Assembly: GCA_037387885.1 (NCBI GenBank)
Contig: JARRKQ010000015.1
Span: forward strand, 1-55,646
Length of the DNA stretch: 55,646 nucleotides
Reading direction: 5' to 3'
Source of the DNA: Alphaproteobacteria bacterium
Lineage (GTDB): Bacteria > Pseudomonadota > Alphaproteobacteria > JAPULJ01
Part shown: positions 3,140-24,185 of the stretch, piece by piece
How positions within the stretch are numbered: the stretch's first letter is position 1
Layout: the number at the start of each line of letters is the position of its first letter
Position numbers and translations under genes: made by a program
Notes under the pieces: model-generated
The model's input: only the letters and a program-made list of their open reading frames with translations
The model's database searches: none
Told to the model about the DNA's origin: nothing

Positions 3140-3171
3140 GGTCCCATCCGCTCTGGGGACATCCGGGTCAA

Positions 3172-3309: not shown

Positions 3310-3858
3310 ATGAGCGATCGCTCGGGCGATGCACAGACGCTGTTGCTGCCCGCCGGAAAGGCCGGTGCCTGGCTCGTTCAGGCGATCGCGCACTTCGCCG
3401 ATCAGGCCCGCCTTTTCCAGGCTGGTGATGACGATTTCTTCGAGGTCGGTCTTGTCGCGGACAAGGCCATGGATCCTTGGGCCGTAAGCCACGTTGTCGA
3501 AGATCGATTTCGGGAACGGGTTGGGCTTCTGGAAGACCATACCGACCCGCGCGCGAAGCTGAACCGGATCGACCTGCTTACTGTAGACATCTTCGCCGTC
3601 CAGCAGGATTTGCCCTTCGACGCGGCAGCTTTCAATGCTGTCGTTCATCCGGTTGAGGCAGCGGAGATAGGTCGACTTGCCGCAGCCGGATGGCCCGATC
3701 AGGGCGGTTACTTCGTTCTCAATAATATCGAGATTGACCGCCTTCAGCGCCTGTTTGCCGCCGTAGAAGACTTCGACGCCCGAACTAGTGATCTTCGCCT
3801 GGCTCGGCTGAATCTGGGGTGTTGCTTTGGATGTCGGCACTTCGGTCACGATTTCCAT
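3178..3858 (-). pseudogene. pstB: Phosphate ABC ATPase PstB, disrupted as assembled (Walker B/D-loop/H-loop segment replaced by an inverted copy of its own 3' end)
   Basis: [37 protein letters not shown] and the C-terminal YITGRFG are present, but there is no MDEP or VTH segment; may be an assembly artefact. Confidence 0.8.
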
Positions 3859-3873
3859 ACTCTATCTCCCATC

Positions 3874-4933
3874 CTACCAGCGGCGCTCGAATTTTTTGCG
3901 GAGGACAATGGCGATTGCGTTCATGAGGATAAGGAAGGCGAGCAGCACCATGATGGCGGCGGCCGTCTTCTCCTCGAAGGCACGTTCGGGACTGTCGGCC
4001 CAGATGTAGACCTGAACCGGCAGTACGGTCGCCGCGTCGGTTATGCCGCTCGGCACATCGACGATGAAAGCAACCATGCCGACCATCAGCAACGGCGCGG
4101 TCTCGCCCAGGGCCTGGGCCATGCCGATGATCGTTCCGGTCAGGATGCCCGGCATCGATAAAGGCAGCACATGGTGCATGACGTTCTTCGGCGCGAATTC
4201 TTCCAGGTAGATCGCCGCCATCACACCGACGGGGAAGGCCAACAGCAGCGTCACGAGCATGGTGAGGCCGGAGCCGACGACGGCGCCCCAAATGCCGGCC
4301 TGCTCGGGCTCGCGGCTGTCGCCCCCTGTTAAGAACCGCCAATTGAATTGCCGCTCGACCGCGCCTTTCTTGGCGAGTGCGTCGAACCACGCGACTTGTT
4401 TGCGGCTTACCTTGGTGGCGCTGCCATCGGGATTTCGCTTGGCGTACCCCTTGCGAAGCATGTCGATCTCGTCGGAGGCGAGCAGCCAGACATGCTGGCG
4501 GGTTCCGATGATCTTGGGATTGCTGAGCACCATGCGGCGCAGCTTGTCGGCCGCACCTGTCGACAGCATCTTGCCCAAAGCGCGCCGGTCACGGCGGCCC
4601 TTTGCGTGCGGAAAAGCGGATCGGATTGCCGTGCGGGCGACGCCCTCGTAGTCGCCTCGCCGCAGATCGTCGATCTTGCGCGTCCCGTCAGGATCGATCT
4701 TCGCGGCATCGAAATAGACTTCGAGATTGATATGGGTCTGCTGAAAGGCGGAGTACCCTTTCGAAATGACGCTGAGCAAGAGGATGAAGAGCGCGACCAA
4801 GGCGAAGCCAATCGCCATCAGGCCGTAGATCTTCAGCCGCAGCTCGGACGCATGGCGTCGGCGGAGACCGCTCTTGACGGTTTCAGCGATTGCGCTCGGC
4901 TGTCGGTCCGCAGCGGCGATGGGGGCGGTGCCG

Positions 4934-4941
<8 letters not shown>
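3874..4941 (-). CDS. pstA: Phosphate ABC permease PstA with an in-frame internal deletion
   Basis: AAIYLEEFAPKN is joined directly to VMHHVLPLSMPGILTG...ALGETAPLL; the central NNLAAVPSI..EAA segment is absent. Confidence 0.85.
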
Positions 4942-6313
<1,372 letters not shown>

Positions 6314-6416
6314 TTCCCCGCCTTGGACCCGGCTCGTTTATGCGCAGCGCCAACCGACGGCCGGCGATGCATTCTTAGAAACAAACGAATATCGGCGCGT
6401 GATCGAAAATGGGTGA

Positions 6417-6443
6417 TGGCCGCCCGTTTATGACGGGCGGCCA
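6417..6443 (-). terminator. Intercistronic stem-loop after pstS
   Basis: TGGCCGCCCGT-TTATG-ACGGGCGGCCA, a perfect 11-bp stem between pstS and pstC. Confidence 0.6.
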
Positions 6444-6454
6444 CCTGCGTAGGC

Positions 6455-7519
6455 TTACATCGACAGGTTCTGGAGCTTGCTGCCCGCATTGCGGAATTGC
6501 TTGCGCTCCTTGTCGGGCATCGGGATCAGGCCCTTTTCGGCCAGATACCCATCCGGTCCCCAGGCTTTCTCGCTGGTGAACTCGGCCACGTATTCCTTGA
6601 TGCCGGGGATTTTCCCGACATGGGCTTTCTTCACGTAGAAGTACATCGAACGCGAGACCGGATATTTCTGCGCCGCGATGTTCTCGAAGGTCGGGGCAAT
6701 GCCTTTGACGATCGAGCCCTGGATCTTGTCTCCATTCTGGTCGAGGAAGCTGTAGCCAAAGACGCCGAAGGCTTTCGGATTGGCTTCGAGCTTCTGGACG
6801 ATCAGATTGTCGTTCTCGCCGGCGTCGATCCAAGCGCCATCCTCGCGGATGCCGTGGCACACGGCCTTGAACATCTTCTTGCCCTTCGACTTCTTGATCG
6901 CCGCCAGATGCTTGAAGGTCTTGCAGCCCTTCTCCATGGCGAGCTCGACGAAGGCGTCGCGCGTACCGGAGGTCGGCGGCGGGCCGAGCACCTCGATGCG
7001 CACATTCGGCAGCGAGGCGTCGATCTGCGACCAGGTCTTGTAGGGGTTCGGCACCAGCTTGCCGCCTTCCTTGCCACCCTCGGGAACCATCTTGGCGAGG
7101 GCGAGGAAGACCTGGCGAAGCGAGATTTTCATCTGCTTCGATTTCTTCGAGTTGGCGATGACGATGCCGTCATAGCCGATCTTGACCTCGACGATTTCCT
7201 TGACGCCGTTCTTCGCGCAGTTCTTGACCTCGGAGCTCTTGATGCGCCGCGAGGCGTTCGTGATGTCGGGGTGATTGACCCCGAGACCAGCGCAGAAAAG
7301 CTTCAGGCCGCCGCCCGAGCCAGTCGATTCGACCACCGGGGCTTTGTATTTGCGATAGGACTTCGCGAACTTCTCCGCTACGGCGGTGGAGAAGGGGAAG
7401 ACCGTCGACGAACCGACGATCTTGATCTGGTCGCGGGCCTGCGCGGGCACCGCGAATGCAACCGCGGCGAAGCCGGCGGCCACAAGAGTTCTTCCCAACA
7501 AGGGAGTTTTTGTGAGCAC
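6455..7519 (-). CDS. pstS: Phosphate ABC substrate-binding protein PstS
   Basis: Signal peptide (..PAQA|RDQI), VGSSTVFP, ESTGSGGG, GPPPTSGTRDAF and YPVSR motifs. Confidence 0.95.
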   Translation of the reverse strand: MLTKTPLLGRTLVAAGFAAVAFAVPAQARDQIKIVGSSTVFPFSTAVAEKFAKSYRKYKAPVVESTGSGGGLKLFCAGLGVNHPDITNASRRIKSSEVKNCAKNGVKEIVEVKIGYDGIVIANSKKSKQMKISLRQVFLALAKMVPEGGKEGGKLVPNPYKTWSQIDASLPNVRIEVLGPPPTSGTRDAFVELAMEKGCKTFKHLAAIKKSKGKKMFKAVCHGIREDGAWIDAGENDNLIVQKLEANPKAFGVFGYSFLDQNGDKIQGSIVKGIAPTFENIAAQKYPVSRSMYFYVKKAHVGKIPGIKEYVAEFTSEKAWGPDGYLAEKGLIPMPDKERKQFRNAGSKLQNLSM

Positions 7520-7610
7520 GGGACTGCCTCCAAAGACACTAAGCCGATCAGCGGATGCGGGCCCTTTCCCGGCCCGCGACGTGGCTGACCATAGCTGTCG
7601 GGCAAGATGG

Positions 7611-7643
7611 ATTTACTACTGTTTTGTTACGGTTTTTTGACAC
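7611..7643 (-). promoter_or_regulatory. Pho box (PhoB binding site) upstream of pstS
   Basis: The minus strand reads GTGTCAAAAAA-CCGTAACAAAA-CAGTAGTAAAT: three 11-bp units resembling CTGTCAT-A/T4. Confidence 0.7.
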
Positions 7644-7718
7644 AGCCAGACGGCCCGAATATCGGCAGATTCCAGCGCGAAATTGGGACTATTGAGCTAA
7701 ATTTAGCTTTTCCCGATC

Positions 7719-9113
7719 TCAAAGGCTGCGGGCGGACGCCCGGGCGGGAGCGGCGGGCAGCTTTACGGCAAATGTGCTGCCCTCGCCGGGGGTGCTTTCG
7801 ATCTCCAGCCGGCCGCCGTGCCGGTTCACGATGTGCTTGACGATCGCCAGGCCGAGCCCCGTGCCGCCCAAGGCGCGGGAGCGGGCTGCATCAACCCTAT
7901 AGAAGCGCTCGGTCAGCCGGGGCAGATGCTCGGCTTCGATGCCATCACCCTCGTCGCGCACGATGATGGCGATCTCGTCGCTCCCGCTGGGCGGTTCGAT
8001 ACGCTTCACGGCAAGGTTAACGGTCGATCCCTCATCACTGTACTTGATGGCGTTGTCGACCAGGTTCTGGATGATCTGCATGATCTCGTCGTCATCGCCG
8101 ACGACGATCGCCGGCCGCTCGGGCATATCGAGCCGCAGCCCGACAGCCTTGTCCTTGGCCTTGATCTGCAGGAGCTCGACGACCGATTGGGCGGCGCTGA
8201 CGACATCGACCCGGCCGCGCGGGCGTGAATGCTCGTTCAGCTCGATGCGCGAGAGCGACATGAGGTCGCCGATCAACCGGGACATCCGCTCGGCCTGCTC
8301 GCGCATCAGCACCAGGAACCGCTCGCGCGCCGCCGCGTCGTCCCGTGCCGGCCCATGCAGCGTTTCTATGAACCCGATCAGGGCGGAAAGCGGCGTCCGC
8401 AGTTCGTGGCTCACATTGGCGATGAAATCGGAGCGGGTCTGGTCAATGCGCCGCGCCGCGGTCAGATCCTGCAGGGCGATGATGACCGCCGTGCCGTCGC
8501 CTTGCGACGCCCGGATCGGGAGCAGTTGCGCCAGGAAATGGCGCGTCACTGCATCGACGATCGAAATCTCCACTTCCTCTCCCGGTGATCCGCTCAGGAT
8601 GTCGTCGACTGCATCGAGCACGCCAGGGTCGCGAATGACGGCGGAGAGGGTCTGGTCCTTGACGGCATCGCCGATGATGTCGCGGGCGGCGCGATTGGCG
8701 CTGCTGACCCGCTTCATCCGATTGACGATCAGAATGGGCACCGCCAGCGTCTCGATGATGCGCTCGCCGTCCGCGGCCTGGCGCTCCAGCTCCGTGATCC
8801 GCTCGCCGTACCGGCGATGGGTTCGCGATGCCACGTCGGCAAACTCCCCGACGATGCCGCGCGGGCCGATCTGCGCCGCGTCGGTGACCCCAAAATCTTC
8901 GCGCTCCAGCAAGCCACGCAACCGCTCTATCCGGGCGACCACGAGCCGCGCCACGATACCTGCGACTATCAGCGCGATCGCTATGGCGGCCGCCAGCGTC
9001 CCCACACCGCTCTTGTCGAACACCGCGAGCGCGATCACGGCCGCGACCGCGGGGGCCGCGAACAACATGGTCCAGCTTAACCAGCGCCCTATTGGCGGTT
9101 CGCGTTCCGGCAT
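7719..9113 (-). CDS. phoR: Phosphate sensor histidine kinase PhoR
   Basis: 2 TM helices, PAS-like region, DFIANVSHELRTPL, NLVDNAIKY, RLTERFYRVD and GGTGLGLAIVKH; sits upstream of the pst operon. Confidence 0.92.
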   Translation of the reverse strand: MPEREPPIGRWLSWTMLFAAPAVAAVIALAVFDKSGVGTLAAAIAIALIVAGIVARLVVARIERLRGLLEREDFGVTDAAQIGPRGIVGEFADVASRTHRRYGERITELERQAADGERIIETLAVPILIVNRMKRVSSANRAARDIIGDAVKDQTLSAVIRDPGVLDAVDDILSGSPGEEVEISIVDAVTRHFLAQLLPIRASQGDGTAVIIALQDLTAARRIDQTRSDFIANVSHELRTPLSALIGFIETLHGPARDDAAARERFLVLMREQAERMSRLIGDLMSLSRIELNEHSRPRGRVDVVSAAQSVVELLQIKAKDKAVGLRLDMPERPAIVVGDDDEIMQIIQNLVDNAIKYSDEGSTVNLAVKRIEPPSGSDEIAIIVRDEGDGIEAEHLPRLTERFYRVDAARSRALGGTGLGLAIVKHIVNRHGGRLEIESTPGEGSTFAVKLPAAPARASARSL

Positions 9114-9306: not shown

Positions 9307-10908
9307 ATGGGCGTTGCGTCGGGGGCCGATCGATGGCAAGCCTTGGGCGACGATGCGGCCGCGGGAGCGGGGGCAAGCCCGCTGATGCAGGATTTCGAAC
9401 TCGAACCATCGGGCGAGGACGAGGCGCCGGGCGGACGGCGCCTTCATCCGCGCGTGGTGGTGGCCGTCGTCTGCCTCGGCATGGGGGTGTGCGCGGCCGC
9501 GCTTTTCGTGCTCGTCATCGTCCTGGCGCTGGCGGGATTGCCAGCCGAAGCGCCAGCGCGGCTTCATATCTGGCTTGCCGGCATCGGCGGGCTCCTGGCG
9601 ATCGGGACGGCGGCGGCGCTGGCCTGGCTGTTCCTGGAGCAACACATCGCCCGGCCCATCGCCACGCTGACCCGCGAAACCGAGAGCGCGGTCCGCTCCT
9701 CCGCGCATACCGAGTTCGTCCTGCCCCGCACCCATGCGCTGGGCGAGCTGCCGGGCTTCGTCGCGGAGCTCGCCGGGCGCCTGGAGACGACGCGGCGCGA
9801 CACGGCCAAGGCGATGTCGGCGGCGGCCGCGCGCGCGGACGAGGATGTCGCGCGCCTTGAAGCCATCCTGCGGGATCTTTCCGAAGGCGTCATCGTTGCC
9901 GATCTCGAGCATCGGGTCGTTCTCTATAACCGCGCAGCATTGTGGCTGGTGGATGCGCCCGAGCGGCTGGGGCTGGGCCGATCGGTCTTCGAGGTCGTCG
10001 AGCCGGGCGCGGTCGAGGCCATATTGGCCGATCTTCAAGGTTTGGCGGATGACGACGCGGAGAGCCGGGTCGGCGGCCACACCGCTTCGCTCGAATGCCT
10101 CACCGTGCCTGAGGGTGCGGCGCTCGACGCGCGCATGGCGCTGGTGCGTGACGGGGAGGCGGCTGTTACCGGCTATGTGCTGACGATTGCCGCGCGGGCC
10201 AAGGCGGCCGCGCGGGACCCCGAACCCGCGGCGCTGCCGGCGCGGCCCGAATTCTACGACTTCGATCTGATGCGGCCGCGCGCGGCGGGGGCGCTCGCCG
10301 ACCGCGCGCTCAAGGATCTCAATTTCGTCGTCTTCGACACCGAGACGACGGGCCTTCAGCCCTCCAAGGGCGACCGCATCATCCAGATTGCCGGCGTGCG
10401 GATCGTCAACGGCCGCGTACTCCAGGGCGAGGTCTTCGACCGCCTCGTCAATCCCGGCCGGCGGATCCCCAAGGCCTCGATCCGCTTCCACGGCATCACC
10501 GACGATATGGTTGCCGGCGAAATGGGTATCGCAGATGTCCTGCCCGCTTTTGCTGAATTTGCGGGCGAGGCGGTGCTGGTCGCGCACAACGCCGCGTTCG
10601 ACATGAAGTTCCTCTCGCTCACGGAAGCGGAAACCGGCGTCGCCTTCGCCAATCCGGTCCTCGACTCGCTGCTGCTTTCGGTCTTCGTCCACGACCACGT
10701 GCCCGACCACACGCTCGACGCCATCGCCGGCCGCTTCGGCGTCGAGATCGAGGGCCGCCACACCGCGCTCGGCGACGCCCGCGCCACGGCGCGCATCTTC
10801 CTCCACCTGGTCGAGCTGCTCGAGGGCCGCGGCATCACCACCCTCGGCCAGGCCATGGAGGCCGAGCGCAGTATCTACGCGCTCCGCCGCAAGCAGGCGC
10901 GGTTATAG
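9307..10908 (+). CDS. Membrane-anchored PAS-domain DEDDh 3'-5' exonuclease (DNA Pol III epsilon-like)
   Basis: 2 TM helices, HAMP-like linker, PAS ([19 protein letters not shown]), RPEFYDFDL, Exo[11 protein letters not shown], ExoII HNAAFD, ExoIII HTALGDA; start uncertain (9307 or 9385). Confidence 0.85.
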
Positions 10909-10983: not shown

Positions 10984-11232
10984 CAGGGGATTTTTCCCAC
11001 TAGCTGATCGCAATAGGAGCAGACGCACGATGCCCCCAACCTTCCGCCGCCTCTTCGAAGGCCCCGACGAATTCGACTACGCCCCAGATCCTATGGGAAG
11101 GGTGGGCGCGGGAATGCAGGAGATCCACGACCCGACCGACGACCCGCGCGGCAACGAGCTCTTCCAGGACTTCCGCGAGGCCTGGGCCGAGGGGCACGAC
11201 CTGCCCGATCTCTTCGGCGGCGCGGGCATGCT
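10958..11232 (+). repeat. Direct repeat copy 1 (promoter/UTR plus 5' end of the effector gene)
   Basis: Diverged match to 13152-13438; the first ~42 bp are identical. Confidence 0.9.
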
Positions 11233-12436
11233 CGACATCAAGGAGCCGGTGGGCCCGGCCGCCCGCAACCGCCGCCCCGACGTGGCCAAGCTCGAGACCT
11301 TTCTCGACGCGCTGGGCGAGCACGACGCGGCGCGCACGGAAGGGCCGACCGGCTTCTACGGCATCGGCTTCGAGGACAACCTCAAGGCCTATCAGGCCCG
11401 CAACGGCCTCACCCCCGACGGCCTCGTAAACCCCGATGGCGAGACAATCGGCCGCATCAAGCAGGACCTCACGGCGACGCTGGGGCCGGGGGCGTGGGCG
11501 GGTGGCGCCGATGCCGCAGACGGTTCAGGGCCCGGTGCGCGGCTGATCCCGGTGCAGTCAAGTGGGGGCTCGCCGATAGGGCGCACGCCAGAGCCGCCGG
11601 ATCGCGAGCGGCGGGCGCGGCAGCAGTTTCTTGAAGCCAGTCGCGAGAGCGCGCGAAGGCTAAAGCGGCAGGAGAAGGAGGAGTTTCTCGAAGCTAGCCG
11701 TGAAAGCGAGCGGCGACTTCCCGAACAGGTTCGGCAACTAGATCGCAAGTATCGGCTAATGCTTTGGGGAGCAGTGGAGATCGAAAGACAGGCTCGACCT
11801 TTGGTCAACCTCAAACACGCTATCCCGGCCATGAGCCTCTACCTAGATGGTAAAGGCGGTACTGTTCACTATGACTCTGACTGGATCCGCGCGCAGCCGA
11901 TCATCAAGCGCGCTGAAGACCGAGTGCTGAGCCATTTCGGAGACTGGATGCGGGGGAAACCCCTTAGGCCCGGCGCATCCCCGCCGGATATTGCGAGCAA
12001 GATTCTGAAGCTAAAGCCGGGAGAGTCAGTCGGCGGTGACACCGACCGATCTGCTATTGCCAAATTCGTGAAACCCACCTGGCGGGACAAGATCACGGAC
12101 TTCTACAATACGAGCAAGAAAAGCAACATAAAGGGAATCGGAAGCTTCAGTTTTACCCGTAAAGGTAATACGATATACGTGACAGGAATCATCGATCAGA
12201 AGTGGCGCGACAAATTCGACTTTGAACCCGGGAAGGTAATCGAAATCCCATACGAGGGGTCGCCTGTAAGGGTCATTACAGACGAGTTGATTTTCTTGCG
12301 AGGGGTCGGCAAGGCCCGGACCTTTCAGCAGCGCTCTTCCTGGCAACGACGCGTAGTGGGGCAGATCGAAATTGTGCGAAATCCAAAGACGGGCAAAGAG
12401 CAGATAGGCGGGGTCGCCTTAAAATGGGCGGATTAA
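11030..12436 (+). CDS. Peptidoglycan-binding-domain protein with a lower-GC C-terminal domain (putative polymorphic toxin/effector)
   Basis: PG_binding_1-like DVAKLETFLDALG..PTGFYG..AYQARNGLTPDGLVNPDGET; codon and GC shift after ~11560; internal FLEASRES duplication; followed by a SEL1 gene. Confidence 0.65.
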   Translation: MPPTFRRLFEGPDEFDYAPDPMGRVGAGMQEIHDPTDDPRGNELFQDFREAWAEGHDLPDLFGGAGMLDIKEPVGPAARNRRPDVAKLETFLDALGEHDAARTEGPTGFYGIGFEDNLKAYQARNGLTPDGLVNPDGETIGRIKQDLTATLGPGAWAGGADAADGSGPGARLIPVQSSGGSPIGRTPEPPDRERRARQQFLEASRESARRLKRQEKEEFLEASRESERRLPEQVRQLDRKYRLMLWGAVEIERQARPLVNLKHAIPAMSLYLDGKGGTVHYDSDWIRAQPIIKRAEDRVLSHFGDWMRGKPLRPGASPPDIASKILKLKPGESVGGDTDRSAIAKFVKPTWRDKITDFYNTSKKSNIKGIGSFSFTRKGNTIYVTGIIDQKWRDKFDFEPGKVIEIPYEGSPVRVITDELIFLRGVGKARTFQQRSSWQRRVVGQIEIVRNPKTGKEQIGGVALKWAD

Positions 12437-12564
12437 GTCGATGACATCCGGAAGTTGAACCTCAAGAAGCAACGCGATTGGGTAAGAACCTCCCCAGACA
12501 GATGAGCGCTCAAGGTAAAGCCGCGTTGCCCCACTGTGGCCGCTCGCGCACAGTTTTTTGTCGC

Positions 12565-13341
12565 ATGTTGCGACCATTTATTGTCGCGATGGCATTGGTG
12601 TTCGCTGTTCCCGGTGCCGCAGATGATTTCGGCGATGCCAAGCAAGCCTTGGAAGCCGAGCAGCATGCAAAAGCCATCCGCCTGCTACGGCCCATGGCGG
12701 AGAAGGGCGACTCACGCGCGCAGCATTTGTTGGGGTACGCCCACATGTCGGGCTTGGGCGTAAAGAGAAGCGATAAAAAAGCGCAGTATTGGCTGATGAA
12801 AGCCGCTGCTCAGGACTACACACCGGCGATTGGCTTGCTTGGGCAGTTGTTGGTCAGTATCGACGGATCGCCGACCCGTGGCCTGCCGCTCATGAAGATC
12901 GCAGTTCGCCGCGGCGATGCCGCTACTCAAGCGGCTCTGGGCATGTGTTATTTGTTTGGAGTTCAGGGTATTCCGGCTGATGTGCAGGAATCGAAAAGAC
13001 TTCTGCTCTTGTCGGCAAGCCAAAAACACAAGTTTGCTTATCTTGGTCTCGCTTGGTGGCACGCGACCGACCGCGGAGGGAAAAAGCCGGACTATGTCGA
13101 GGTTCTCGTCGGCATCTCTTCAGCGATCCGTTGGGTCGCCCAGGCGCGGGCGACCGGGGACAGCGCTCCGCTACGATCAGGGGATTTTTCCCATTCACGA
13201 TCACAGCAGGAGCAGACGCCCGATGCCGCCAACCTTCCGCCGCCTCTTCGAAGGCCCCGACGAAATCGACTACGCCCCCGACCCCCTAAATTCATTTTGC
13301 GGGCCGGGTCGGCGCAGGCATGCAGGAGATCCACGACCTGA
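12565..13341 (+). CDS. Exported SEL1-like repeat protein (putative immunity protein); 3' end apparently truncated
   Basis: Signal peptide MLRPFIVAMALVFAVPGAA; SEL1 repeats (AEKGDSRAQHLLG..GLGVKRS..WLMKAAAQ; RRGDAATQAALG); after PDYVE the frame runs into repeat copy 2. Confidence 0.75.
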   Translation: MLRPFIVAMALVFAVPGAADDFGDAKQALEAEQHAKAIRLLRPMAEKGDSRAQHLLGYAHMSGLGVKRSDKKAQYWLMKAAAQDYTPAIGLLGQLLVSIDGSPTRGLPLMKIAVRRGDAATQAALGMCYLFGVQGIPADVQESKRLLLLSASQKHKFAYLGLAWWHATDRGGKKPDYVEVLVGISSAIRWVAQARATGDSAPLRSGDFSHSRSQQEQTPDAANLPPPLRRPRRNRLRPRPPKFILRAGSAQACRRSTT

Positions 13342-13480: not shown

Positions 13481-14941
13481 TCAAAACACCTCACCGGTGA
13501 ACTCCGAGCGGATGCGGCTGCGGAAGGCGCGGATGGCGCGCAGGCAGTCGCGGAGATAGTCCTTCTCGCGCTTGGAGAGCGACTTGGGCGCGATGTAGTA
13601 GCCGGCGGGTGCGCCCGCGGCGTGGTCGCGGAGCTGCTGGCGCAGCAGCAGATGGGCGATGTGCCGGAAGGCGCCCGAAAGGTAGTCCTGCTCGTCGGCC
13701 TCGAGCACGCCCGCGGCGGCGAGCGCCTCGATGCGCGCGAGGGTGGGGCCCGCCTCGATGCCCTCGCGCAGCGCAAGCAGGCGCACCGCGTCGATGATCG
13801 GCAGCGAGCCGGTGTGCTTCAGGTTGATCTTGCCCTTGTGCTCGGGCTCGTCGCGCACGGTGATGAAGCGGCCGAACCAACCGAGCGCAACCCCGTGCTC
13901 CTCATCGTCGCGGAAGAGCTCGCGGAGGAAGGCGTTGTTGCCCTTGGTGAGCGCGGTGACATGGGCGCGCAGCCGCGCCGGCATCGCCGGGTCGCCGTAG
14001 ACGCCGCGGAAGTCGAAGAAGATGTCGGCGAGGCGGAGCGCGGTGGTGTCGCGCTTGGCCTGCCAGAGCGAGATCTGTTCGCGCCACTGGCTCTCGGTCT
14101 TCCGCCAGAGCGGGTTCTGCGCCATCACGTAGCCCTTGCAGAGCGGCATGCCGATGGCGTTGAGATTGGCGTTGAGGCGAACGGCGAGCTCTGTAAACCA
14201 GCCGTCGATGCGGTCGTGCTCGGCGTCGGGGTAGTCGGCGAGGATGAAGCCGTTGTCCTGGTCGGGGAAAAGATAGTTCTCGTCGCGCCCGCCCGAGCCC
14301 ATGACGATGACGGCGAAGTCGACCGGCGGCGCGCCTTTGCCCTCTTCGGCCAGCGCTTCGAGCGTGCCGGCGGTGACGCGGCGGTAGATGTCGTTGTTGA
14401 CGTCGGTGAGGAGGGCCTGGATCTCGGTCGCCGGCACCGCATCGGCAAGGAGATCGGCGGCGAGGTCGATCTGCGCGGCCTTGACCTCGCGCAGGCCGTC
14501 CATCGTGCCCTCATGGGTCAGATGCTCGATGCGCTCGACCGTGGTCGCGGCGATATCGGCAAGGGCGTCGTGCAAATCGAGGTGGCCGACGGCGCGGCCG
14601 ATCCCGTCCACCACCGGCATGTTGCGGTGGCCGAAGCGGCGCATGCGGGCGATGGCGCGGTAGAGATAGTCGTCTGGCCCGATGGTCTTGACGCCCTCGC
14701 TCATGATCTCCGAGAGCGGCGTCTCGGGCGTGGCGCGGAAGGCGATGCGGCGGGTGACGTCCTGCTCCGTGATGATGCCGACGACCCTTTGGTCGCCGTC
14801 GACGACCACGGCGCAGGCGGCCCGGCCGACGGTCATCGCCCCCACGGCGTCCGTGACGGTCGCGGTCGTCTCCAGCGCCAGCGGCGCCGGTCCCATGAAG
14901 TCGCCCACCCGGCGGCGGAAGAGCTGGGTCTGGGATTGCAT
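13481..14941 (-). CDS. CBS-pair plus DUF294 putative nucleotidyltransferase (GlnD/GlnE-like)
   Basis: Two CBS domains (VGIITEQD); NTase motif MGSGGRDE....DQDNG; LCKGYVMAQNPLWR, IFFDFR and INLKHTG; no N-terminal cNMP-binding domain. Confidence 0.88.
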   Translation of the reverse strand: MQSQTQLFRRRVGDFMGPAPLALETTATVTDAVGAMTVGRAACAVVVDGDQRVVGIITEQDVTRRIAFRATPETPLSEIMSEGVKTIGPDDYLYRAIARMRRFGHRNMPVVDGIGRAVGHLDLHDALADIAATTVERIEHLTHEGTMDGLREVKAAQIDLAADLLADAVPATEIQALLTDVNNDIYRRVTAGTLEALAEEGKGAPPVDFAVIVMGSGGRDENYLFPDQDNGFILADYPDAEHDRIDGWFTELAVRLNANLNAIGMPLCKGYVMAQNPLWRKTESQWREQISLWQAKRDTTALRLADIFFDFRGVYGDPAMPARLRAHVTALTKGNNAFLRELFRDDEEHGVALGWFGRFITVRDEPEHKGKINLKHTGSLPIIDAVRLLALREGIEAGPTLARIEALAAAGVLEADEQDYLSGAFRHIAHLLLRQQLRDHAAGAPAGYYIAPKSLSKREKDYLRDCLRAIRAFRSRIRSEFTGEVF

Positions 14942-15102
14942 CCAAAAGGTCTCCCCGATTGGGCCGTTCTATAGCATGGCGCGCAGAGGTCGGCAGATTG
15001 ATCCAGGGCAAAGGATTGGCGTGTCGGCAAAGGCCGGGCTAGAGTGTCGGCGCCGAGGAGCCGCCAAGAGCCCAGGCACGAAACAGGGAAGGGAACCCCG
15101 CC

Positions 15103-15483
15103 ATGGCGCGGTCGGTGCTGGTGGTGGACGATGAGCCGAACATCGTCCTCTCGCTGGAATTCCTTATGAAGCAAGCGGGTCTCGAGGTCCGCACGGCCGC
15201 TGATGGCCAGGCGGCTCTGGCGTCCGTTCAGGCGAATACGCCAGATTTAATTTTGCTCGATATTTCAATGCCCAATGGAGATGGCTTCGAGGTTTGTCGC
15301 AAGATTCGCGAAAACCCCGTATGGCAGGATATCCGGATCATCATGCTGACCGCCAAGGGCAAGGACTCCGAGCGTGAGAGGGGGCTCGCCGCGGGGGCGG
15401 ACGACTACATCACCAAGCCCTTTTCGACGCATGAGGTGATCGACCGGGTCGCAGCGCAGATTGGAACCGCCAGGACCGATTAA
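15103..15483 (+). CDS. Single-domain response regulator (receiver only)
   Basis: VVDDE, LLDISMP, MLTAK and ITKPFS; 126 aa with no output domain. Confidence 0.92.
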   Translation: MARSVLVVDDEPNIVLSLEFLMKQAGLEVRTAADGQAALASVQANTPDLILLDISMPNGDGFEVCRKIRENPVWQDIRIIMLTAKGKDSERERGLAAGADDYITKPFSTHEVIDRVAAQIGTARTD

Positions 15484-15530
15484 CCACGGTTTGGCCGCCG
15501 TCTCCCCAAAACGCGGCAACCGCGCTAGGA

Positions 15531-15818
15531 TTGAAACATTATCAACCAGATCGTCTCTCAACCGGGACGGGGGCGGGGCAGTTGGCCGGACCAGCGAAGA
15601 CCAGCGAGCGCTCGATTTCGCTTTTGCTGCTTGGCTTGCTCGCCTTCAGCCCTCCGCTGCTCCTGATCTTCAGTGGGCAGTCGACGATCTTCGGTATCCC
15701 GTCGCTCTTTGCTTATCTGTTCAGCGCCTGGGTCGTTCTGATCGCGCTGAGCCGGATCCTCGCCGAACGGGCGCGGCCCGACGATGGGGCGCGGGTGCCG
15801 CCGCCCGGACAGCGCTAG
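15531..15818 (+). CDS. Small two-TM membrane protein preceding the SLC5-kinase
   Basis: Two hydrophobic segments (LLLLGLLAFSPPLLLIF; IFGIPSLFAYLFSAWVVLIAL); start uncertain. Confidence 0.6.
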   Translation: MKHYQPDRLSTGTGAGQLAGPAKTSERSISLLLLGLLAFSPPLLLIFSGQSTIFGIPSLFAYLFSAWVVLIALSRILAERARPDDGARVPPPGQR

Positions 15819-15836
15819 GCGCTTTGATGGTCCGCC

Positions 15837-18671
<2,835 letters not shown>

Positions 18672-20237
18672 GCGGTGGCTGGGCGCGTTGGCCGCAATCG
18701 CTGCGATCGCAAAGCCGGCAGCTGATCCCGATCGGCATCCGGTGCCGCCGGTCCTCGAGATCCATGCCATCGGCATAGATAATGTCGCTCGCATGGCCGA
18801 TGCCGCAGCCGATCTCGATCGCGAAGTGACTGCGCGGCGCGTGGTGGCCGGCGCCAGGCTTGGTGACCGCGCGGGCAATTGAGAAGTAGGCGGTGCCATC
18901 GGGCATTTCGCTCGGTTGAGCGACGATCTGGCCGGGCGACAGGAGCGCGGTGTGTACCGCCCATCGGGGGCACGCGCCGGAGAAGCGGGGAATCCGCAGC
19001 CCTGAACCCATGAACCGCTTGGAAATATTCCCCGCGGCATCGACGCGGACGAAATGGAACGGGATCGCCGCATCGCCCGGTCGTTGCAGGGTGGTCAGGC
19101 GGTGGCAGACCTGCTCGAAGCTGGCGCCGAAGCGCTGGCCCAATCGTTCGACGTCATAGCGCTCTACCCGTGCTGCTTCCGCGAACCGCTCGTACGGCAT
19201 CATGAGCGCTCCGGCGAAGTATCCTGCCAGCGCGCGGCGCGCCATCGCTTCGGAATCGGCGCCGCTAAAGGTCCCGTTTTCCAAGCAGGCGGACAAGAGA
19301 TCGCTGTGTGTGAGCACGGCATAATGCCGCGCGAGAGCGAATGCGGCGCTGCTCGGCGAAAGCGTCTCATCGAGCAGGACGCGGCCGTTGGCCTCGGATG
19401 CGACTTGCGTGGCATTGGCCGTGCGCTCGATGGTCACGCCGTGCCGCCGCTCCAGTAGGTCCGCAAGGGCCGAGAACGCGGCGGCCGGATCGAGCCCCAA
19501 CGCCTCGTGCAGGCTTTCCGCTTCGGCGTCGAGCTCGGTGAAATGGTTTCCGTTGAGCTCCAGGAACTCGCTGACCTCTTCGCCAGGCGGCCGACTGCCG
19601 ACGATGCCCTCGAGCGCATCACCGCGGGCGATCTCGACCAGCTGCCCGACCGCATCGGTCAGGCGCTCGCTCTCGCCGACGATGATGCCGAGAAACTTCT
19701 GGCGCTCCTCGGCGCCCATATCGGCGTGATCGTGGAGGATCTCGGAGAAGGAGCGGATCGAGGTCAGCAGGGTGAGGAGCTCGTGGATCGAGCTGGAGAT
19801 GAAGGCGTCGTCGGACAACCGGTCGCTCATCCCCCGCACATTGTCGTTCGCCGTCCGGTAGGCCCGGTAAAGGTCGACGATCGCCCGGCAGGCGGCGGGG
19901 GAGGCGTTGACGAGATCGGTGAGATCGTCACGCTCGATGCCGCTCTCCCGGAATATGGGATCGCCGAACGCCTCGATCAGATCGCCCAGAAGCCGGGTCT
20001 CATCCTCATCGGAGAAGGCCTCGAGATCGACCTCGAAAAGCCGAGAGACCTTGAGCAACAGCGGCAGCGTCAGTTGCCGCTGGTTGTGCTCGATCAGATT
20101 GAGATAGCTGGGCGAAATGCCGAGCTGTCCGGCCAGCGCAACCTGGCTTACGTCGCGATCCCTGCGAAGCCGCCGCACCTTGTGGCCAAGCATTGGACCT
20201 TGGGCCATGAAATCCGCCTCGTGACTTGTCCCGGGAA

Positions 20238-20273
20238 TTTACAAATTTTCATATTTACAATTCAATTAGTAAA
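20238..20273. promoter_or_regulatory. Candidate ScfR-family operator in the divergent promoter
   Basis: TTTACAAA (20238) and TTTACAAT (20254) plus an inverted TAGTAAA in an AT-rich patch; resembles the TTTGCAAA core of RamB/PccR sites. Confidence 0.45.
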
Positions 20274-20414
20274 CTATTAACCCAAAAATCGGCAGCCAAC
20301 AAGGGATACGTTGACCTCAATTTACGTCTGTGAACGCATTACAGCACTGCGCTGTCCGTTCAATCGTTGGCAGGCGGCGCAGGTGTCGTTTTTGTGGAGG
20401 GGGAGGACATAGCC

Positions 20415-22394
20415 TTGGCACCAAAGATCATCTGGCTATTCATCTTCGTCGCGCTGTACTGGGCCTACTGTATCTTCTGGGGCGTCAAGTCGGCGATGAC
20501 GGCGAAGACTGCCAGTGACTACTTCATCGCCGGCCGACGGCTGTCGATGTGGGTATTCATTCTGGCCGCCACCGCGACCTCATTCTCGGGCTGGACCTTC
20601 ATGGGCCATCCGGGGCTGGTCTATCGCGATGGCTTCCAATACGCCTACGCGTCGTTCTACACGATCACGATCCCGTTCACCGGGGTCATGTTCCTGAAGC
20701 GCCAGTGGATGCTGGGCAAACGCTTCGGCTATGTGACACCGGGCGAAATGCTCTCGGATTACTTCCAGGGCGACGGTATCCGGATCCTGACTGTGCTTGT
20801 CGCGCTGCTCTTCTCGATCCCGTATCTGGGTGTGCAGCTCGGCGCGTCGGGCTTTCTGTTCAACACTCTGACCGACGGCATGGTCAGCGTGAACTTCGGG
20901 ATGTGGGTCCTGTCGGCGGTTGTGTTCATCTACGTGGCATCGGGCGGTCTGCGCGCGGTGGCCTACGTGGATACGCTGCAGTGTATTCTGCTTGCCTTCG
21001 GCATCATCATGGTCGGCATCATTGCGATCCAGTTGGCCGGTGGCTGGGGGGCTCTGAACGAGGGCTTCGCCAAGATTGCGGCGCAGCCCGAGCTCGGGCG
21101 CTGGAAAGCGACACCAGCGGGGCACAACGCCTACTTCGCGATACCGGGCGTGATCCAGTTCACCGCCGGCCTCGGCAAAGAAACGCCCGTCGGTGGCTTG
21201 TGGACCGGCGTTATGTGCCTGACCTATATGTTCGCGCTGATGGGCATCCAGTCCGCCCCGGCGTTCTCCATGTGGGCCTTCGGCAACAACGATCCGAAGC
21301 CGTTCGCACCGCAGCAGGTCTGGGCTTCGTCGCTCGGAATCGGCTTCATCCTGTTCTTCTTCACGGCCTTCCAGGGCATGGGCGCGCATCTTCTTGGCGC
21401 CAACGGGATGGTCACGAAGGCGGGGCTTGCGACATCGAACGCGTTGCCGGACCTCACCAAGAACCTGCAGGGCAGGCTGGTGCCGGATTACATCAACACG
21501 ATTGGTGACTCGACACCGTGGCTCGTCGGCCTGATCGCGGTTTGTGCGCTCGCGGCCATGCAATCCACCGGCGCGGCATATATGTCGACGGCCGGCGGTA
21601 TGCTGACCCGCGATCTCTATAAGCGCTATCTCAATCCGACAGCCTCGCACGGCACTCAGAAGCTGTTCGGCCGGTTGGGCGTTGCCTTCATCGTGTTGTC
21701 AGCCCTGGTGGTCGCGACCTTCTCGCGTGACGCGCTGGTGCTGCTGGGCGGTCTGGCTGTGGCCTTCGGCTTCCAAATGTGGCCGTCGCTGGCGGCGGTC
21801 TGCTGGTTCCCGTGGATCACCCGTCAGGGCGCCACCTGGGGACTCGCGGCTGGTCTGCTTGCGGTGATCTTTACCGAGACGATCGGTCAACAGATTACCG
21901 GGGGCGCGCTGCCGTGGGGCCGCTGGCCGTGGACCATCCACTCGGCTGGTTGGGGCATCATCTTCAACCTGGCGTTCTGCATCCCGATTTCGGCGATGAC
22001 GCAAAGCGACACGGCTGCGCGTGAGCACCGCATGAAGTACCACAACTTCCTGCGCGAACACGCGACGCTGTCGGCCGACAAGAAGCGTCTGGTTCCGATC
22101 GCCTGGATCATCACTCTCGCCTGGCTGTTCTTCGGCATCGGCCCCGGCGCGGTGATCGGCAACACCATCTTCGGTGCGCCGGCAGCCGGCGTGGCCGGCT
22201 GGACCTTCGGCATCCCGTCGATCTGGGCCTGGCAGATCCTGTTCTGGATCCTGGGCGTCGGGATGATGTGGTTCCTGGCCTACAAGATGGAAATGTCGAC
22301 CGTGCCTGATAAGGAAGTTCAGGCGCTGGTCGAGGATATCGGCGACGTCGCCGTGACCCCGCCACAACAGGCGGGTTCCGGAGGCGCCACCTAA
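20415..22394 (+). CDS. Sodium:solute symporter (SSS), probable monocarboxylate transporter
   Basis: DYFIAGR, ATATSFSGWTFMGHPG, SGGLRAVAYVD and ALAAMQST; many TM helices; TTG start at 20415 after a GGAGG RBS; substrate inferred from context only. Confidence 0.88.
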   Translation: MAPKIIWLFIFVALYWAYCIFWGVKSAMTAKTASDYFIAGRRLSMWVFILAATATSFSGWTFMGHPGLVYRDGFQYAYASFYTITIPFTGVMFLKRQWMLGKRFGYVTPGEMLSDYFQGDGIRILTVLVALLFSIPYLGVQLGASGFLFNTLTDGMVSVNFGMWVLSAVVFIYVASGGLRAVAYVDTLQCILLAFGIIMVGIIAIQLAGGWGALNEGFAKIAAQPELGRWKATPAGHNAYFAIPGVIQFTAGLGKETPVGGLWTGVMCLTYMFALMGIQSAPAFSMWAFGNNDPKPFAPQQVWASSLGIGFILFFFTAFQGMGAHLLGANGMVTKAGLATSNALPDLTKNLQGRLVPDYINTIGDSTPWLVGLIAVCALAAMQSTGAAYMSTAGGMLTRDLYKRYLNPTASHGTQKLFGRLGVAFIVLSALVVATFSRDALVLLGGLAVAFGFQMWPSLAAVCWFPWITRQGATWGLAAGLLAVIFTETIGQQITGGALPWGRWPWTIHSAGWGIIFNLAFCIPISAMTQSDTAAREHRMKYHNFLREHATLSADKKRLVPIAWIITLAWLFFGIGPGAVIGNTIFGAPAAGVAGWTFGIPSIWAWQILFWILGVGMMWFLAYKMEMSTVPDKEVQALVEDIGDVAVTPPQQAGSGGAT

Positions 22395-22420
22395 GTCTCC
22401 GTCCTGACGACGGCTACTCG

Positions 22421-22453
22421 AGGGGGAGGGTTCGCTCTCCCCCTTTTTCTTTT
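22421..22453 (+). terminator. Rho-independent terminator
   Basis: AGGGGGAG..CTCCCCCT stem followed by TTTTCTTTT. Confidence 0.8.
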
Positions 22454-22551
22454 GGTTCAATTGGTTAACGATGATTGGCTTGCCAGCAAGCCGCGATTTG
22501 TTAGAGTCTCGATTGACGGATTGAAGCGCGATCAACCGACGGACGGCAGCA

Positions 22552-22785
22552 GTGTCGCCACAAACCTACCAGATCGTTTCGACCCTGCTGCTGACGGCGT
22601 TACTGTTCTATCCGGTGCGCCAGCTGATCTGGGTGTTGTCGGTCAGGCGCGTGGAGGGACGCGACGGCCAGCATGACGAGGATCGCCGCCTCCGGTTCAA
22701 GCGGCGCGCGACCGCAACAGCGATCCTTTTGTGCTTCGTGTTCTCGGTCCTGTTCACGAACTCCTTGATGAAGGGTCCTCAATGA
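22552..22785 (+). CDS. Small two-TM hypothetical protein
   Basis: 77 aa with two hydrophobic helices; its stop overlaps the next ATG (ATGA). Confidence 0.65.
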   Translation: MSPQTYQIVSTLLLTALLFYPVRQLIWVLSVRRVEGRDGQHDEDRRLRFKRRATATAILLCFVFSVLFTNSLMKGPQ

Positions 22786-23393
22786 GTCCCGAAGTCCTCT
22801 CGCGCTTCATCAAGTACATGTTCATCGGCATCCTTGTGATGGGTGCCGTCTATTTCATTCTGCCGGGTTTCGTGGAGCGGGCGCCGGGCGACTACTACAC
22901 CGAGCAGGGCGACATCCTGCTGCGCGACCGCAAGTATGCCGAAGCGCTGAAGAAATTCGACGAAGCCCTGAAGGAACGGCCCGACCATCGCGGCGCGCTC
23001 ATGGGGCGCGCGCTGGTCTTCATCCAGACCAAGAAGCACGACAAGGCGATCACCGAGCTCACCTATCTCATCGATTATCTCAACCGCACGCTGAAGCCCG
23101 ACGACCGGACCGGCAAAGGCGTGCTCGCCGCCGCCTATGCCAACCGCGGCATCGTCCACGACCGCGAGGCCCGCTACAAGAAGGCGTTCGACGACTACAT
23201 CATGTCGCTCAAGACCGATGAGGACGTCGTCTCCGGTCCCGATGTCATTCACAAAATCCTTTATGGGAACGCCCGGCCGTCGACGGTCCGCAAGCGCGCG
23301 CGCTATATCGCCGAGCAGCTCAAGCTGCCGCCGGAAAAGCGGGTGCTCCGCATCCCGGAGGTCGACAAGAAGCAGCGGATGTATAAGCCGTAG
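22782..23393 (+). CDS. Membrane-anchored TPR protein
   Basis: N-terminal TM; TPR patterns (YAEALKKFDEALKERPDHRGALMGRALVF; AAAYANRGIV). Confidence 0.8.
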   Translation: MSPEVLSRFIKYMFIGILVMGAVYFILPGFVERAPGDYYTEQGDILLRDRKYAEALKKFDEALKERPDHRGALMGRALVFIQTKKHDKAITELTYLIDYLNRTLKPDDRTGKGVLAAAYANRGIVHDREARYKKAFDDYIMSLKTDEDVVSGPDVIHKILYGNARPSTVRKRARYIAEQLKLPPEKRVLRIPEVDKKQRMYKP

Positions 23394-23403
23394 CCGGCAG
23401 GGC

Positions 23404-23859
23404 TTAAAAACCCGCGGGCTTCGGCACGATTATGACCTCTTCCTGACGGTAGCGGCCGTGGCATTCATCGGGCGATTCGTTGACGATCGCCCGCTTGAAT
23501 CCGGCATCGAGCGCAAGCCACCGTTTGCGCAGATGCGCCGGAACACCGGCATCGATCAGCGATTCTTCCAAAAGCTTGTGCCGGATCTCGAACACCTCGG
23601 CCGGCATGAACATGTGGACGTGGGCGTCGCGCGGTGAGCGGCCGCCGTAGATCGCCGGTCCGCCCATCAGAGTCGTCCAGAAATCCGTTTGCTGCGCCTC
23701 CACCACCTCACGCTTGGTGTGGAGGAAGAAGCCTTTGAGCCACGGATGGGCGAAAAGCCTGGTGTAGAGCAGGTTATGGACACGAGCCAGGCAGGCGCGG
23801 CCGCCGACCTCGTCGAAAAAATTCTCGCCCAACAGCGATTTGCCCTTGGCCGCCGCCAT
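23404..23859 (-). CDS. Group 1 truncated hemoglobin-like protein
   Basis: FDEVGG, HPWLKGFF and QQTDFW..MGGPAIYGGR....AH with the proximal His. Confidence 0.8.
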   Translation of the reverse strand: MAAAKGKSLLGENFFDEVGGRACLARVHNLLYTRLFAHPWLKGFFLHTKREVVEAQQTDFWTTLMGGPAIYGGRSPRDAHVHMFMPAEVFEIRHKLLEESLIDAGVPAHLRKRWLALDAGFKRAIVNESPDECHGRYRQEEVIIVPKPAGF

Positions 23860-23981
23860 CGTTCATGCCCGCCCAGATTGGCCCGCCCGGAGTGGATAAT
23901 GCGGACAACTTAGGTACTGGGCTTTCACGGACGGTTAATGAAGGAAGACGGTGCGGATTCCGAAGCCCCGATATCCGCGGC

Positions 23982-24185
23982 TCAGGTAAATTTGACGACC
24001 TTGAGCACGTCCTGAAGCAGGACCAGGAAGAAGAATATCGCCGCGATGCAGCCGAATAGGAGCCGCACCGTGTCGGGCTTGCCGTCCGCATCGCGCCAGC
24101 GAATGCCATGCACAGCAATGATCGCCGTGACGGCGAGAAATATGTAGTTGATCGGCTGTTCCCAGGCCCCGGCAAACTCGAACAT
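23982..24185 (-). CDS. Small two-TM hypothetical protein
   Basis: 67 aa, two hydrophobic segments, ATG start preceded by a purine-rich stretch. Confidence 0.55.
   Translation of the reverse strand: MFEFAGAWEQPINYIFLAVTAIIAVHGIRWRDADGKPDTVRLLFGCIAAIFFFLVLLQDVLKVVKFT

Follow-up and report, generated by a model that had tools for sequence, protein, structure and literature searches.

A kinase-derived phosphotransfer hairpin in a subfamily of ScfR regulators, a candidate docking site for a single-domain receiver

Why would a transcription factor carry a piece of a histidine kinase? This question is raised by a 55,646-nt stretch from an Alphaproteobacteria bacterium (assembly GCA_037387885.1, contig JARRKQ010000015.1, positions 1 to 55,646; hereafter "the window"), in which an XRE/ScfR regulator contains a hairpin resembling the dimerization and histidine phosphotransfer (DHp) domain of the SLC5-type membrane histidine kinase encoded next to it, with the gene of a single-domain receiver close by. 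An earlier interpretation of the DNA made without database searches (the sequence-only reading) had proposed that kinase and regulator dock the same receiver, and that the signal passes from the kinase through the receiver to an ScfR protein that is either phosphorylated on its own histidine or bound by the receiver. Based on evidence that is computational throughout, we propose, and give an even chance to, a reading in which the regulator belongs to a ScfR subfamily whose kinase-derived pseudo-DHp reads the state of the kinase's own bare receiver, phosphorylation of the histidine being optional.

By its helix-turn-helix (HTH), IrrE/M78-like and ScfRs domains, the regulator is assigned to the ScfR (short-chain fatty acyl-CoA regulator) family, with Pfam matches to Peptidase_M78 (PF06114, residues 272–372, E 5.9e-15) and ScfRs (PF09856, residues 373–515, E 1.1e-57) making up its core. 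HisKA (PF00512) is matched at residues 136–198 with 32.9 bits (gathering cut-off, 26.9), and the Pfam scan returned no match to HATPase_c (PF02518) in the regulator at E ≤ 0.1; the ScfR core lies C-terminal of the hairpin, where kinases carry their ATPase domain. In an AlphaFold2 model built from 150 homologs (mean predicted local distance difference test score, pLDDT, 86.1), a long helix (residues 104–132) leads into alpha1, which bears His142, and a short loop then connects to alpha2. When searched by itself (phmmer), the hairpin matches the DHp domains of the solved kinases 5c93, 4u7n, 6paj and 3dge. The core matches Mycobacterium tuberculosis PrpR (6cyy; Foldseek E 2e-27, target-normalized TM-score 0.88), and Cys413, Cys497, Cys500 and Cys505 of the core are invariant in 150 aligned sequences; PrpR is described, in the available text of PMC6765138, as binding coenzyme A (CoA) esters with the aid of a 4Fe-4S cluster. 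The NCBIfam RamB equivalog model NF038139 scores 406.8 bits against the regulator, under its cut-off of 700, and does so in two stretches that flank the insert. Taken together, the domain matches and the model indicate that the insert is a true DHp domain without an ATPase domain, and a clean addition of ~70 residues, after residue ~132, to an otherwise ordinary ScfR regulator. Judging from the alignment, the insert has also lost what a kinase needs, the H-box proline being gone along with the ATPase domain: the H-box reads HELLTL in the window against a kinase consensus of H-E-x-R-T-P, and proline is missing from the six most frequent residues at its position, which cover 142 of 143 regulators. 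On this point the sequence-only reading, which had placed a DHp domain without HATPase between HTH and ScfR core, is borne out; its count of 30 identities in 43 positions between the regulator and kinase peptides that it quoted was reproduced by script, and its statement that RamB/PccR-type proteins lack such a domain agrees with the split RamB match and with the 83 of 136 ScfR representatives found to be insert-less (below).

The resemblance between the DHp sequences of regulator and kinase is real and far above chance. Regulator and neighboring kinase share 39% identity over 165 aa (BLASTP, E 9e-20), and their hairpins are 58% identical over 57 positions at the protein level and 83% identical at the DNA level (MAFFT mean column measure). 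When the insert was searched against the window's own genome, a 317-contig assembly that is 71.5% complete, the neighboring kinase was its best match (54% identity, E 1e-18); the second of 16 matches, to the PhoR-like kinase at 8244–8432, reached 33% (E 6.6e-6), in line with the earlier remark that PhoR in the window is far less similar. Alpha1 is of the NAIIGFSE type in the other kinases of the genome and reads TSIRSF(S/T)EIL in the regulator and its neighbor. The insert had accordingly been described as a copy of the neighboring kinase's domain, of which the resemblance stands and the copying does not. Across 18 genomes, each contributing one pair (L011 was omitted, its kinase being broken in the assembly), the regulator DHp is 40.9% identical to the cognate kinase and 41.0% identical to non-cognate ones (permutation p 0.62), and in one clade identity to the cognate kinase is just 21–34%. 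The equality of the cognate and non-cognate values rules out a recent copy or gene conversion from the neighboring kinase. Searching residues 118–204 against proteins of 915–2610 aa returned kinases for all of the best 120 listed matches, ~915–1009 aa long and 45–63% identical, many of them named Na+/proline symporter/histidine kinase by JGI and some from Betaproteobacteria; at 54%, the neighboring kinase is no nearer to the insert than these SLC5 kinases of other organisms. Since cognate and non-cognate identities are equal and foreign SLC5 kinases match at 45–63%, the insert is best described, on these comparisons, as an old acquisition that descends from the SLC5-kinase lineage and not as a copy of the present neighbor, and the high likeness of the two hairpins in the window as that of the slowest-diverging branch.

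The subfamily defined by this insert is large and apparently of single origin, not a one-off. PF00512 is present in 116 of the 120 best homologs at the 90%-cluster level, whose source organisms, where named, are mostly Alphaproteobacteria, and HisKA was found at E ≤ 0.001 in 29 of 100 sequences comprising the window protein and the 99 best 50%-identity representatives. By alignment, the insert is present in 53 and absent in 83 of 136 ScfR representatives of at least 430 aa. In a FastTree phylogeny of these 136 sequences calculated with the insert columns removed (14 of 150 rows were left out as shorter than 430 aa, and P0249 was scored insert-less by hand), insert presence is explained by 2 changes, compared to a mean of 42 after shuffling, and the insert was apparently acquired once. 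Among 401 evenly sampled genomes of the class, 41 had a regulator-type match, or ~40 after the false call L103, using our own sorting rule (regulator type, query start ≤ 8 and frame ≤ 620 aa; kinase type, frame ≥ 850 aa), which mis-sorted at least G314 and leaves G253 doubtful. Carriers of the module include the cultured Novispirillum itersonii, whose strain ATCC 12639 (loci L011 and L012) bears the His and has the gene order regulator, receiver, kinase. In a plasmid collection queried with the insert at E ≤ 1e-10, 14 records were matched, all over the kinase-matching part of the query, and the two matches inspected (Paracoccus and Cupriavidus) are kinases, not regulators. A shorter clade, 30–60 residues under the window protein, keeps the DHp; it includes L081, L087, L095, L105 and L112 (465 aa), as well as L086, L090, L094, L104, L106 and L109 at 479–492 aa.

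Insert-bearing regulators are also closely tied to the kinase and the receiver in the genome. We recovered 80 species loci with a regulator, 22 insert-bearing and 58 insert-less, and both an SLC5 kinase and a bare receiver lay within 10 kb in 18 of the 22, compared to no SLC5 kinase near any of the 58 insert-less ScfR genes. Of the four insert-bearing loci without this linkage, two lie on contigs shorter than 6 kb; the other two, from Kiloniellales, are on contigs that have little flanking sequence to one side. In the class sample, a kinase-type match was found in 38 of the 41 genomes with a regulator type (on the same contig in 34 and within 11 kb in 33), and the full regulator–receiver–kinase triad was recovered in 31 of 32 fetched loci, with the receiver 0–0.8 kb upstream of the kinase. 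The commonest order, on a single strand and with a usual spacing of ~3.8–4.5 kb, is regulator, receiver, in some cases a small open reading frame (ORF), and kinase; in the window, as in its closest relatives, the operon with the kinase is inverted and converges on the regulator, the 3' ends of the two genes overlapping in the window. Both main arrangements have an uptake system as the divergent neighbor of the regulator, namely an SSS symporter in the window and in L001, L002, L004, L006 and L008, and a Liv-type ABC transporter (binding protein, permease and ATPase) in L003, L005, L020–L056 and L063.

If the regulator were phosphorylated as part of its function, the acceptor histidine would be expected among its conserved residues, and the earlier proposal had made the conservation of His142 in orthologs a point on which it depended. 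Among 143 close homologs (the window protein, 22 locus-derived and 120 database proteins, a set that holds repeats such as L009 and P0114 with an identical hairpin and in which counts are not independent), the His142 column holds His in 125, Tyr in 13, Gln in 3 and Asn in 2. In 53 distant representatives it holds His in 40, Tyr and Phe in 4 each, and Met, Lys, Gln, Thr and Leu in one each, these 13 replacements corresponding to ~11 independent changes on the tree. Across 46 triads it holds His in 37, Phe in 3 and Tyr, Gln and Asn in 2 each, compared to 46 of 46 for the kinase His and for D10, D53 and K105 of the receiver. Kinase and receiver remain adjacent in each of the five species loci that lack the His and have sufficient flanking sequence (L009, L030, L040, L045 and L056). 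In the window protein, His142 is accompanied by E143 and T146 (H-E-x-x-T); Glu at this H+1 position is found in 80 of the 143 homologs, the others having Gln, Arg or Lys, and T146 in 114. Because His142 was lost ~11 times under an invariant kinase His and receiver Asp, an obligatory phospho-His step cannot, on this pattern of conservation, be the common mechanism of the family, and the earlier proposal is in part contradicted by its own measure. The histidine is nevertheless kept in 75–87% of sequences, being replaced in 18 of 143, 13 of 53 and 9 of 46, a retention that exceeds drift and points to a role in most lineages.

Conservation is instead highest on the face of alpha1 that would meet a receiver. 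E156 and I157 are invariant in the 143 sequences, with S153 found in 141 and R152 in 136, compared to 125 for His142. A complex model of two copies of residues 118–204 with the receiver, built on our own alignments, obtained an ipSAE (interaction score from predicted aligned errors) of 0.74 (best control, 0.00). Among 80 solved complexes, 58 attain that mark, as do 2 among 110 mismatched pairs; model runs share at least 94% of contacts, with a partner pLDDT of at least 84. The pose is that of a canonical kinase–receiver complex. The receiver touches His142. Its helix 1 (11–24), residue 55, and the loops 84–86 and 105–110 meet one chain at alpha1 (142–161) and at positions 175 and 179 of alpha2, and the second chain at alpha2. 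Among regulators, conservation is 0.84 at the 15 main contact positions and 0.56 at the 39 other hairpin positions, and identity to the cognate kinase is 65% and 31% at the same two sets. The predicted docking face thus shows the strongest conservation within the insert and is shared with the kinase. The complex model supports receiver binding by likeness and does not show it; the pattern of conservation is a separate line of evidence.

We suggest the following sequence of events. The SLC5 kinase would sense an external or transported carboxylate-type solute and phosphorylate the single-domain receiver, which, probably in its phosphorylated form, would dock on the dimeric pseudo-DHp of the regulator. 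Docking would act via the long helix that joins DHp and HTH to alter, in one direction or the other, the binding of the regulator to TGTAAA repeats, and altered DNA binding would in turn change the expression of the divergent uptake transporter, in the window the SSS symporter as the likely regulated target, and of the regulator itself. The ScfR core would contribute an intracellular acyl-CoA signal. In His-bearing members, including the one in the window, the histidine may also permit back-transfer to, or dephosphorylation of, the receiver, an addition that would not belong to the conserved core of the mechanism.

The DNA upstream of the regulator offers a candidate operator for such control. 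The intergenic region between regulator and transporter has 38% G+C, compared to ~62–65% for the genome, and includes three tandem 8-bp units (Table 1) with the only two exact TTGTAAAT sites of the window, at 20237–20244 and 20253–20260, 16 bp apart and with a degenerate unit between them. In the 136-nt upstream regions of 50 loci, GTAAA is present 2.18 times on average, compared to 0.05 expected, with at least 2 copies in 32 of 50. TGTAAA units are arranged in tandem in the window's clade, and another clade has them as inverted repeats (TGTAAAT-ATTTACA). The TGTAAA repeats are putative binding sites of the regulator. PccR and RamB boxes are of the TTTGCAAA type, and AT-rich operators with repeated boxes are a feature of the ScfR family. 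In the shorter regulator clade (465–492 aa), operator half-sites are inverted, not tandem. A second conserved intergenic motif, GTCAAyAA-N3-6-TTGrT, lies at 20296–20316 (−), with the TGTAAA repeats on one side and the divergent transporter gene on the other. It is also found upstream in L001, L004, L006, L008, L020, L030 and L057, in the last as a perfect palindrome, TCAATA-ACC-TATTGA, and may be the site of another regulator.

Several observations weigh against the preferred reading. A 75–87% retention of His142 is not required by a pure docking model. The docking positions H, T149 and E156 belong to the generic HisKA consensus, and their conservation may partly reflect the fold or dimer packing; the pass of the complex model may reflect memory of solved complexes such as 3dge, and its controls were unrelated proteins rather than other receivers, which puts specificity outside their reach. 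Mutual information with average product correction over the 46 triads placed 2 of 25 insert–receiver contact pairs in the top 5%, i.e. without enrichment. The kinase–receiver pair used as a positive control likewise had 2 of 25 contact pairs in the top 5%, and for 285 interface-set pairs the top 5% took in 16 regulator pairs and 6 kinase pairs, with 14 expected. Since the control failed equally, the covariation test was without power and weighs neither way. The earlier claim that regulator and kinase dock the same receiver has in its favor a conserved kinase-like face and a kinase-like pose. The receiver also has, or can have, other outputs, as the kinase type occurred without a regulator type, at the threshold used, in 14 of the 58 class-sample genomes that gave a match, and the kinase–receiver pairs on Paracoccus and Cupriavidus plasmids are accompanied by DUF294 (in Paracoccus also by the exonuclease) with the regulator absent.

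The retention of the histidine would be accounted for by a relay in which the kinase phosphorylates Asp53 of the receiver, the phosphoryl group moves on to His142, and DNA binding depends jointly on phospho-His and bound acyl-CoA. Such a relay would operate in the majority of members, which bear the His, and the window protein is one of them. Isolated DHp domains and Spo0B/ChpT-type proteins do exchange phosphoryl groups with receivers, the complex model puts the receiver against residue 142, which here comes with E143 and T146, and His is kept beyond what is expected of an unconstrained surface residue in a domain averaging 50% identity. Yet some 11 independent replacements were by non-phosphorylatable, non-mimetic residues with kinase and receiver still adjacent, and, as seen above, the H+1 position is Glu in little more than half of the homologs; under this relay, the His-less lineages would be secondarily simplified, binding-only versions. 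A tblastn search with the receiver found no further receiver at 13500–24000 of the window that could serve as an onward acceptor; apart from the single-domain protein, the window has just one receiver, that of PhoB (1704–2588), and an unlinked acceptor is possible in a genome of the stated completeness. We also count against the relay that we know of no transcription factor under DHp phospho-His control. Overall, we consider it unlikely, and of the two forms put forward by the sequence-only reading, the receiver-bound ScfR fits better, the His-Asp-His chain being weakened as a general mechanism by the losses of His.

Slightly less probable still, in our view, is that the insert is a mere dimerization module, a four-helix bundle setting the spacing of the HTH domains, and that the linkage to kinase and receiver reflects co-regulation or co-transcription. 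DHp domains dimerize by nature, the core residues L144, L147, I151 and L158 are well conserved, covariation gave no signal, and a spacing module could accommodate TGTAAA half-sites that are direct or inverted by clade; however, a generic coiled coil would suffice for this purpose, and it is the modeled receiver-contact surface that is most conserved and has remained kinase-like despite drift to 21–34% identity, in an insert essentially confined to loci with an adjacent kinase and receiver. A reversed flow is highly improbable: here the regulator DHp would act on the receiver as a phosphatase or as a sink for phosphate, acyl-CoA would tune the pathway, and the output would lie elsewhere, e.g. 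in the DUF294 nucleotidyltransferase. The H-E-x-x-T sequence is intact in the window protein and T146 is widely kept, E/DxxT/N beside the His being reportedly the HisKA phosphatase motif (Willett and Kirby) and the isolated EnvZ DHp, domain A, being said by Zhu et al. to have phosphatase activity; the DUF294 protein also adjoins the receiver here and kinase–receiver pairs without the regulator. Against this stand the variable E143, a dispensable His and the presence of DUF294 in few insert-bearing loci. We give the least credit to a direct pairing between the DHp hairpins of regulator and kinase, resulting in membrane tethering or trans-phosphorylation of His142, which had been listed earlier as an alternative. 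The two hairpins are homologous, and as similar in the window as described above, but likeness specific to the cognate pair is absent and cognate identity drops to 21–34% in one clade; alpha2 residues 182–193 are variable in regulators (0.25–0.87) and near-invariant in kinases (0.56–1.0); and trans-phosphorylation meets the same objection from His losses as the relay.

Beyond the regulator and its operator, the window includes a number of genes that bear on the receiver or on its surroundings (Table 1). The bare receiver, the SLC5 kinase and the divergent SSS transporter near the regulator agree with the sequence-only reading. The SLC5 kinase has its DHp at residues 682–748, with His691 encoded at 17907–17909, and its HATPase domain at 795–906. 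No Pfam or NCBIfam family was matched by the small ORF at 15531–15818; a segment resembling it lies in frame upstream of the L040 kinase, and Paracoccus has an 81-aa hypothetical protein in the same place, from which we infer a correspondence of the three. Paracoccus denitrificans PD1222 plasmid 1 has the annotated order DUF294, small hypothetical, SLC5 kinase, receiver and exonuclease without a ScfR gene, and genes for kinase, receiver and DUF294 are found together on a Cupriavidus megaplasmid. The receiver may have a second output through the DUF294 and exonuclease proteins, both of which have homologs in the window. The stretch from the exonuclease to the DUF294 gene also has two long ORFs, 11030–12436 (+) and 12478–13341 (+), for which no NCBIfam family was matched at E ≤ 1e-10. 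A phosphate regulon block occupies 1704–9113 (−), with PhoB and PhoU above NCBIfam cut-offs and a PhoR/PnpS-like kinase (7719–9113, −) under both NCBIfam cut-offs; the receiver of PhoB (1704–2588) is 49% identical to the single-domain receiver and is the closest one to it in the window's genome. L006 (Kiloniellales) has two receiver-only paralogs, 7384–7851 (+) and 14906–15367 (−), one between regulator and kinase and the other past the DUF294 gene and nearer to the window receiver (60%). In L020 (12288–16352, +), the SLC5 kinase sits in a stop-to-stop frame of 1354 aa, which exceeds that of relatives by ~430 aa; the excess could be a C-terminal extension, a fusion or a missed stop in the assembly.

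Table 1. Features of the regulator locus and its neighborhood, in window coordinates
Feature	Position	Strand	Basis
XRE/ScfR regulator gene, 522 aa	18640..20208	-	ORF; HTH, DHp insert, IrrE/M78-like and ScfRs C-terminal domains
HTH_3 DNA-binding domain, residues 11-64	20017..20178	-	Pfam PF01381, E 2.3e-9
DHp (HisKA) hairpin insert, residues 133-200 (alpha1 134-160, alpha2 166-195)	19609..19812	-	Pfam; model helices
His142 codon, DHp phospho-acceptor position	19783..19785	-	Read from sequence
Predicted receiver-docking stretch of alpha1, residues 148-160, LTSIRSFSEILHD	19729..19767	-	Conservation; complex-model contacts
M78-like and ScfRs sensor core, residues 272-515	18664..19395	-	Pfam; PrpR fold match
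Putative operator, three 8-bp tandem units TGTAAATA / TGAAAATT / TGTAAATT	20236..20260	-	28-52 bp upstream of regulator ATG
SLC5-type membrane histidine kinase, 944 aa	15837..18671	+	ORF; SSF-type membrane domain, HisKA and HATPase (Pfam)
Single-domain receiver, 126 aa, Asp53 codon 15259-15261	15103..15483	+	Pfam Response_reg 5-116 only
Small membrane-like ORF, 95 aa, hydrophobic core, between receiver and kinase	15531..15818	+	ORF
SSS-family solute symporter, 675 aa from TTG start	20367..22394	+	Pfam SSF, NCBIfam sss superfamily; divergent from regulator
CBS and DUF294 nucleotidyltransferase, adjoins receiver-kinase genes	13481..14941	-	
DEDD exonuclease-domain protein	9307..10908	+	

Single-domain response regulators are numerous, and the output of most is not known. 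If our preferred reading of a receiver-reading ScfR subfamily is correct, one widespread group of receivers would be read by a kinase-derived docking domain inside a transcription factor, and an outside signal (the solute at the SLC5 kinase) and an inside signal (acyl-CoA at the ScfR core) would meet in the regulator of an uptake transporter. The architecture suggests a so far undescribed route from a two-component signal to a transcription factor, and a relay, if true, would to our knowledge be the first case of a transcription factor under DHp phospho-His control. Our literature search, whose reach excluded most subscription journals and supplements, found no description of a DHp or HisKA domain in a ScfR regulator, or in a transcription factor as a receiver dock. 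With the module in about one tenth of sampled species of the class, including a cultured one, it is neither rare nor beyond experiment, and the natural series of His-bearing and His-less members amounts to an experiment, already set up, on the requirements of a DHp for sensing as opposed to phosphorylating its partner.

Compared to the ScfR regulators RamB, PccR and MccR/PrpR, the window protein has the same XRE HTH, IrrE/M78-like and ScfRs domains and the PrpR fold, along with four cysteines invariant in our alignment and a putative AT-rich operator of repeated boxes of the kind given as a family feature in the available text of PMC10370305; it differs by the DHp hairpin and by a RamB score under the cut-off. 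A single sentence of the same source mentions that the Paracoccus ScfR homolog Pden_1785 clusters with two-component genes, and the similarity network in its Fig. S1 may include the present subfamily. The neighboring kinase resembles the SLC5/STAC kinases CbrA, CrbS and RpuS in its SSF-type domain fused to HisKA and HATPase. These three systems use DNA-binding response regulators, unlike the window, where the partner is a bare receiver and DNA binding would fall to a separate ScfR regulator with a DHp. In the parts of PMC5715377 and PMC9100948 available, CrbS/CrbR is described as controlling acetate use and RpuS/RpuR as controlling a monocarboxylate symporter.

With Spo0B and ChpT, the analogy drawn by the sequence-only reading, the regulator shares a DHp-like hairpin without ATPase activity that docks receivers, docking here being predicted. 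Spo0B and ChpT keep their His and hand the phosphoryl group to a second receiver, and their hairpin precedes a pseudo-ATPase domain; in the family described here, His is lost in 13–25% of members, no second receiver is found in the window's locus, and the hairpin precedes the ScfR core. The nearest precedent in logic for a receiver-reading regulator is, by analogy, DivL of Caulobacter. DivL has Tyr at the phospho-acceptor position, retains the complete architecture of a kinase and passes its signal to a second kinase. It is presented, in the available text of PMC4211667, as a histidine kinase repurposed to sense the phosphorylation state of a response regulator. The subfamily fits this pattern in that its docking positions are better conserved than the rest of the hairpin and its phospho-acceptor is dispensable, the position tolerating Tyr as it does in DivL, and a kinase-derived DHp that in DivL reads the state of a single-domain response regulator (DivK) would do so here as well. 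Unlike in DivL, however, the DHp stands alone here inside a DNA-binding metabolite sensor, so that the output would be transcription.

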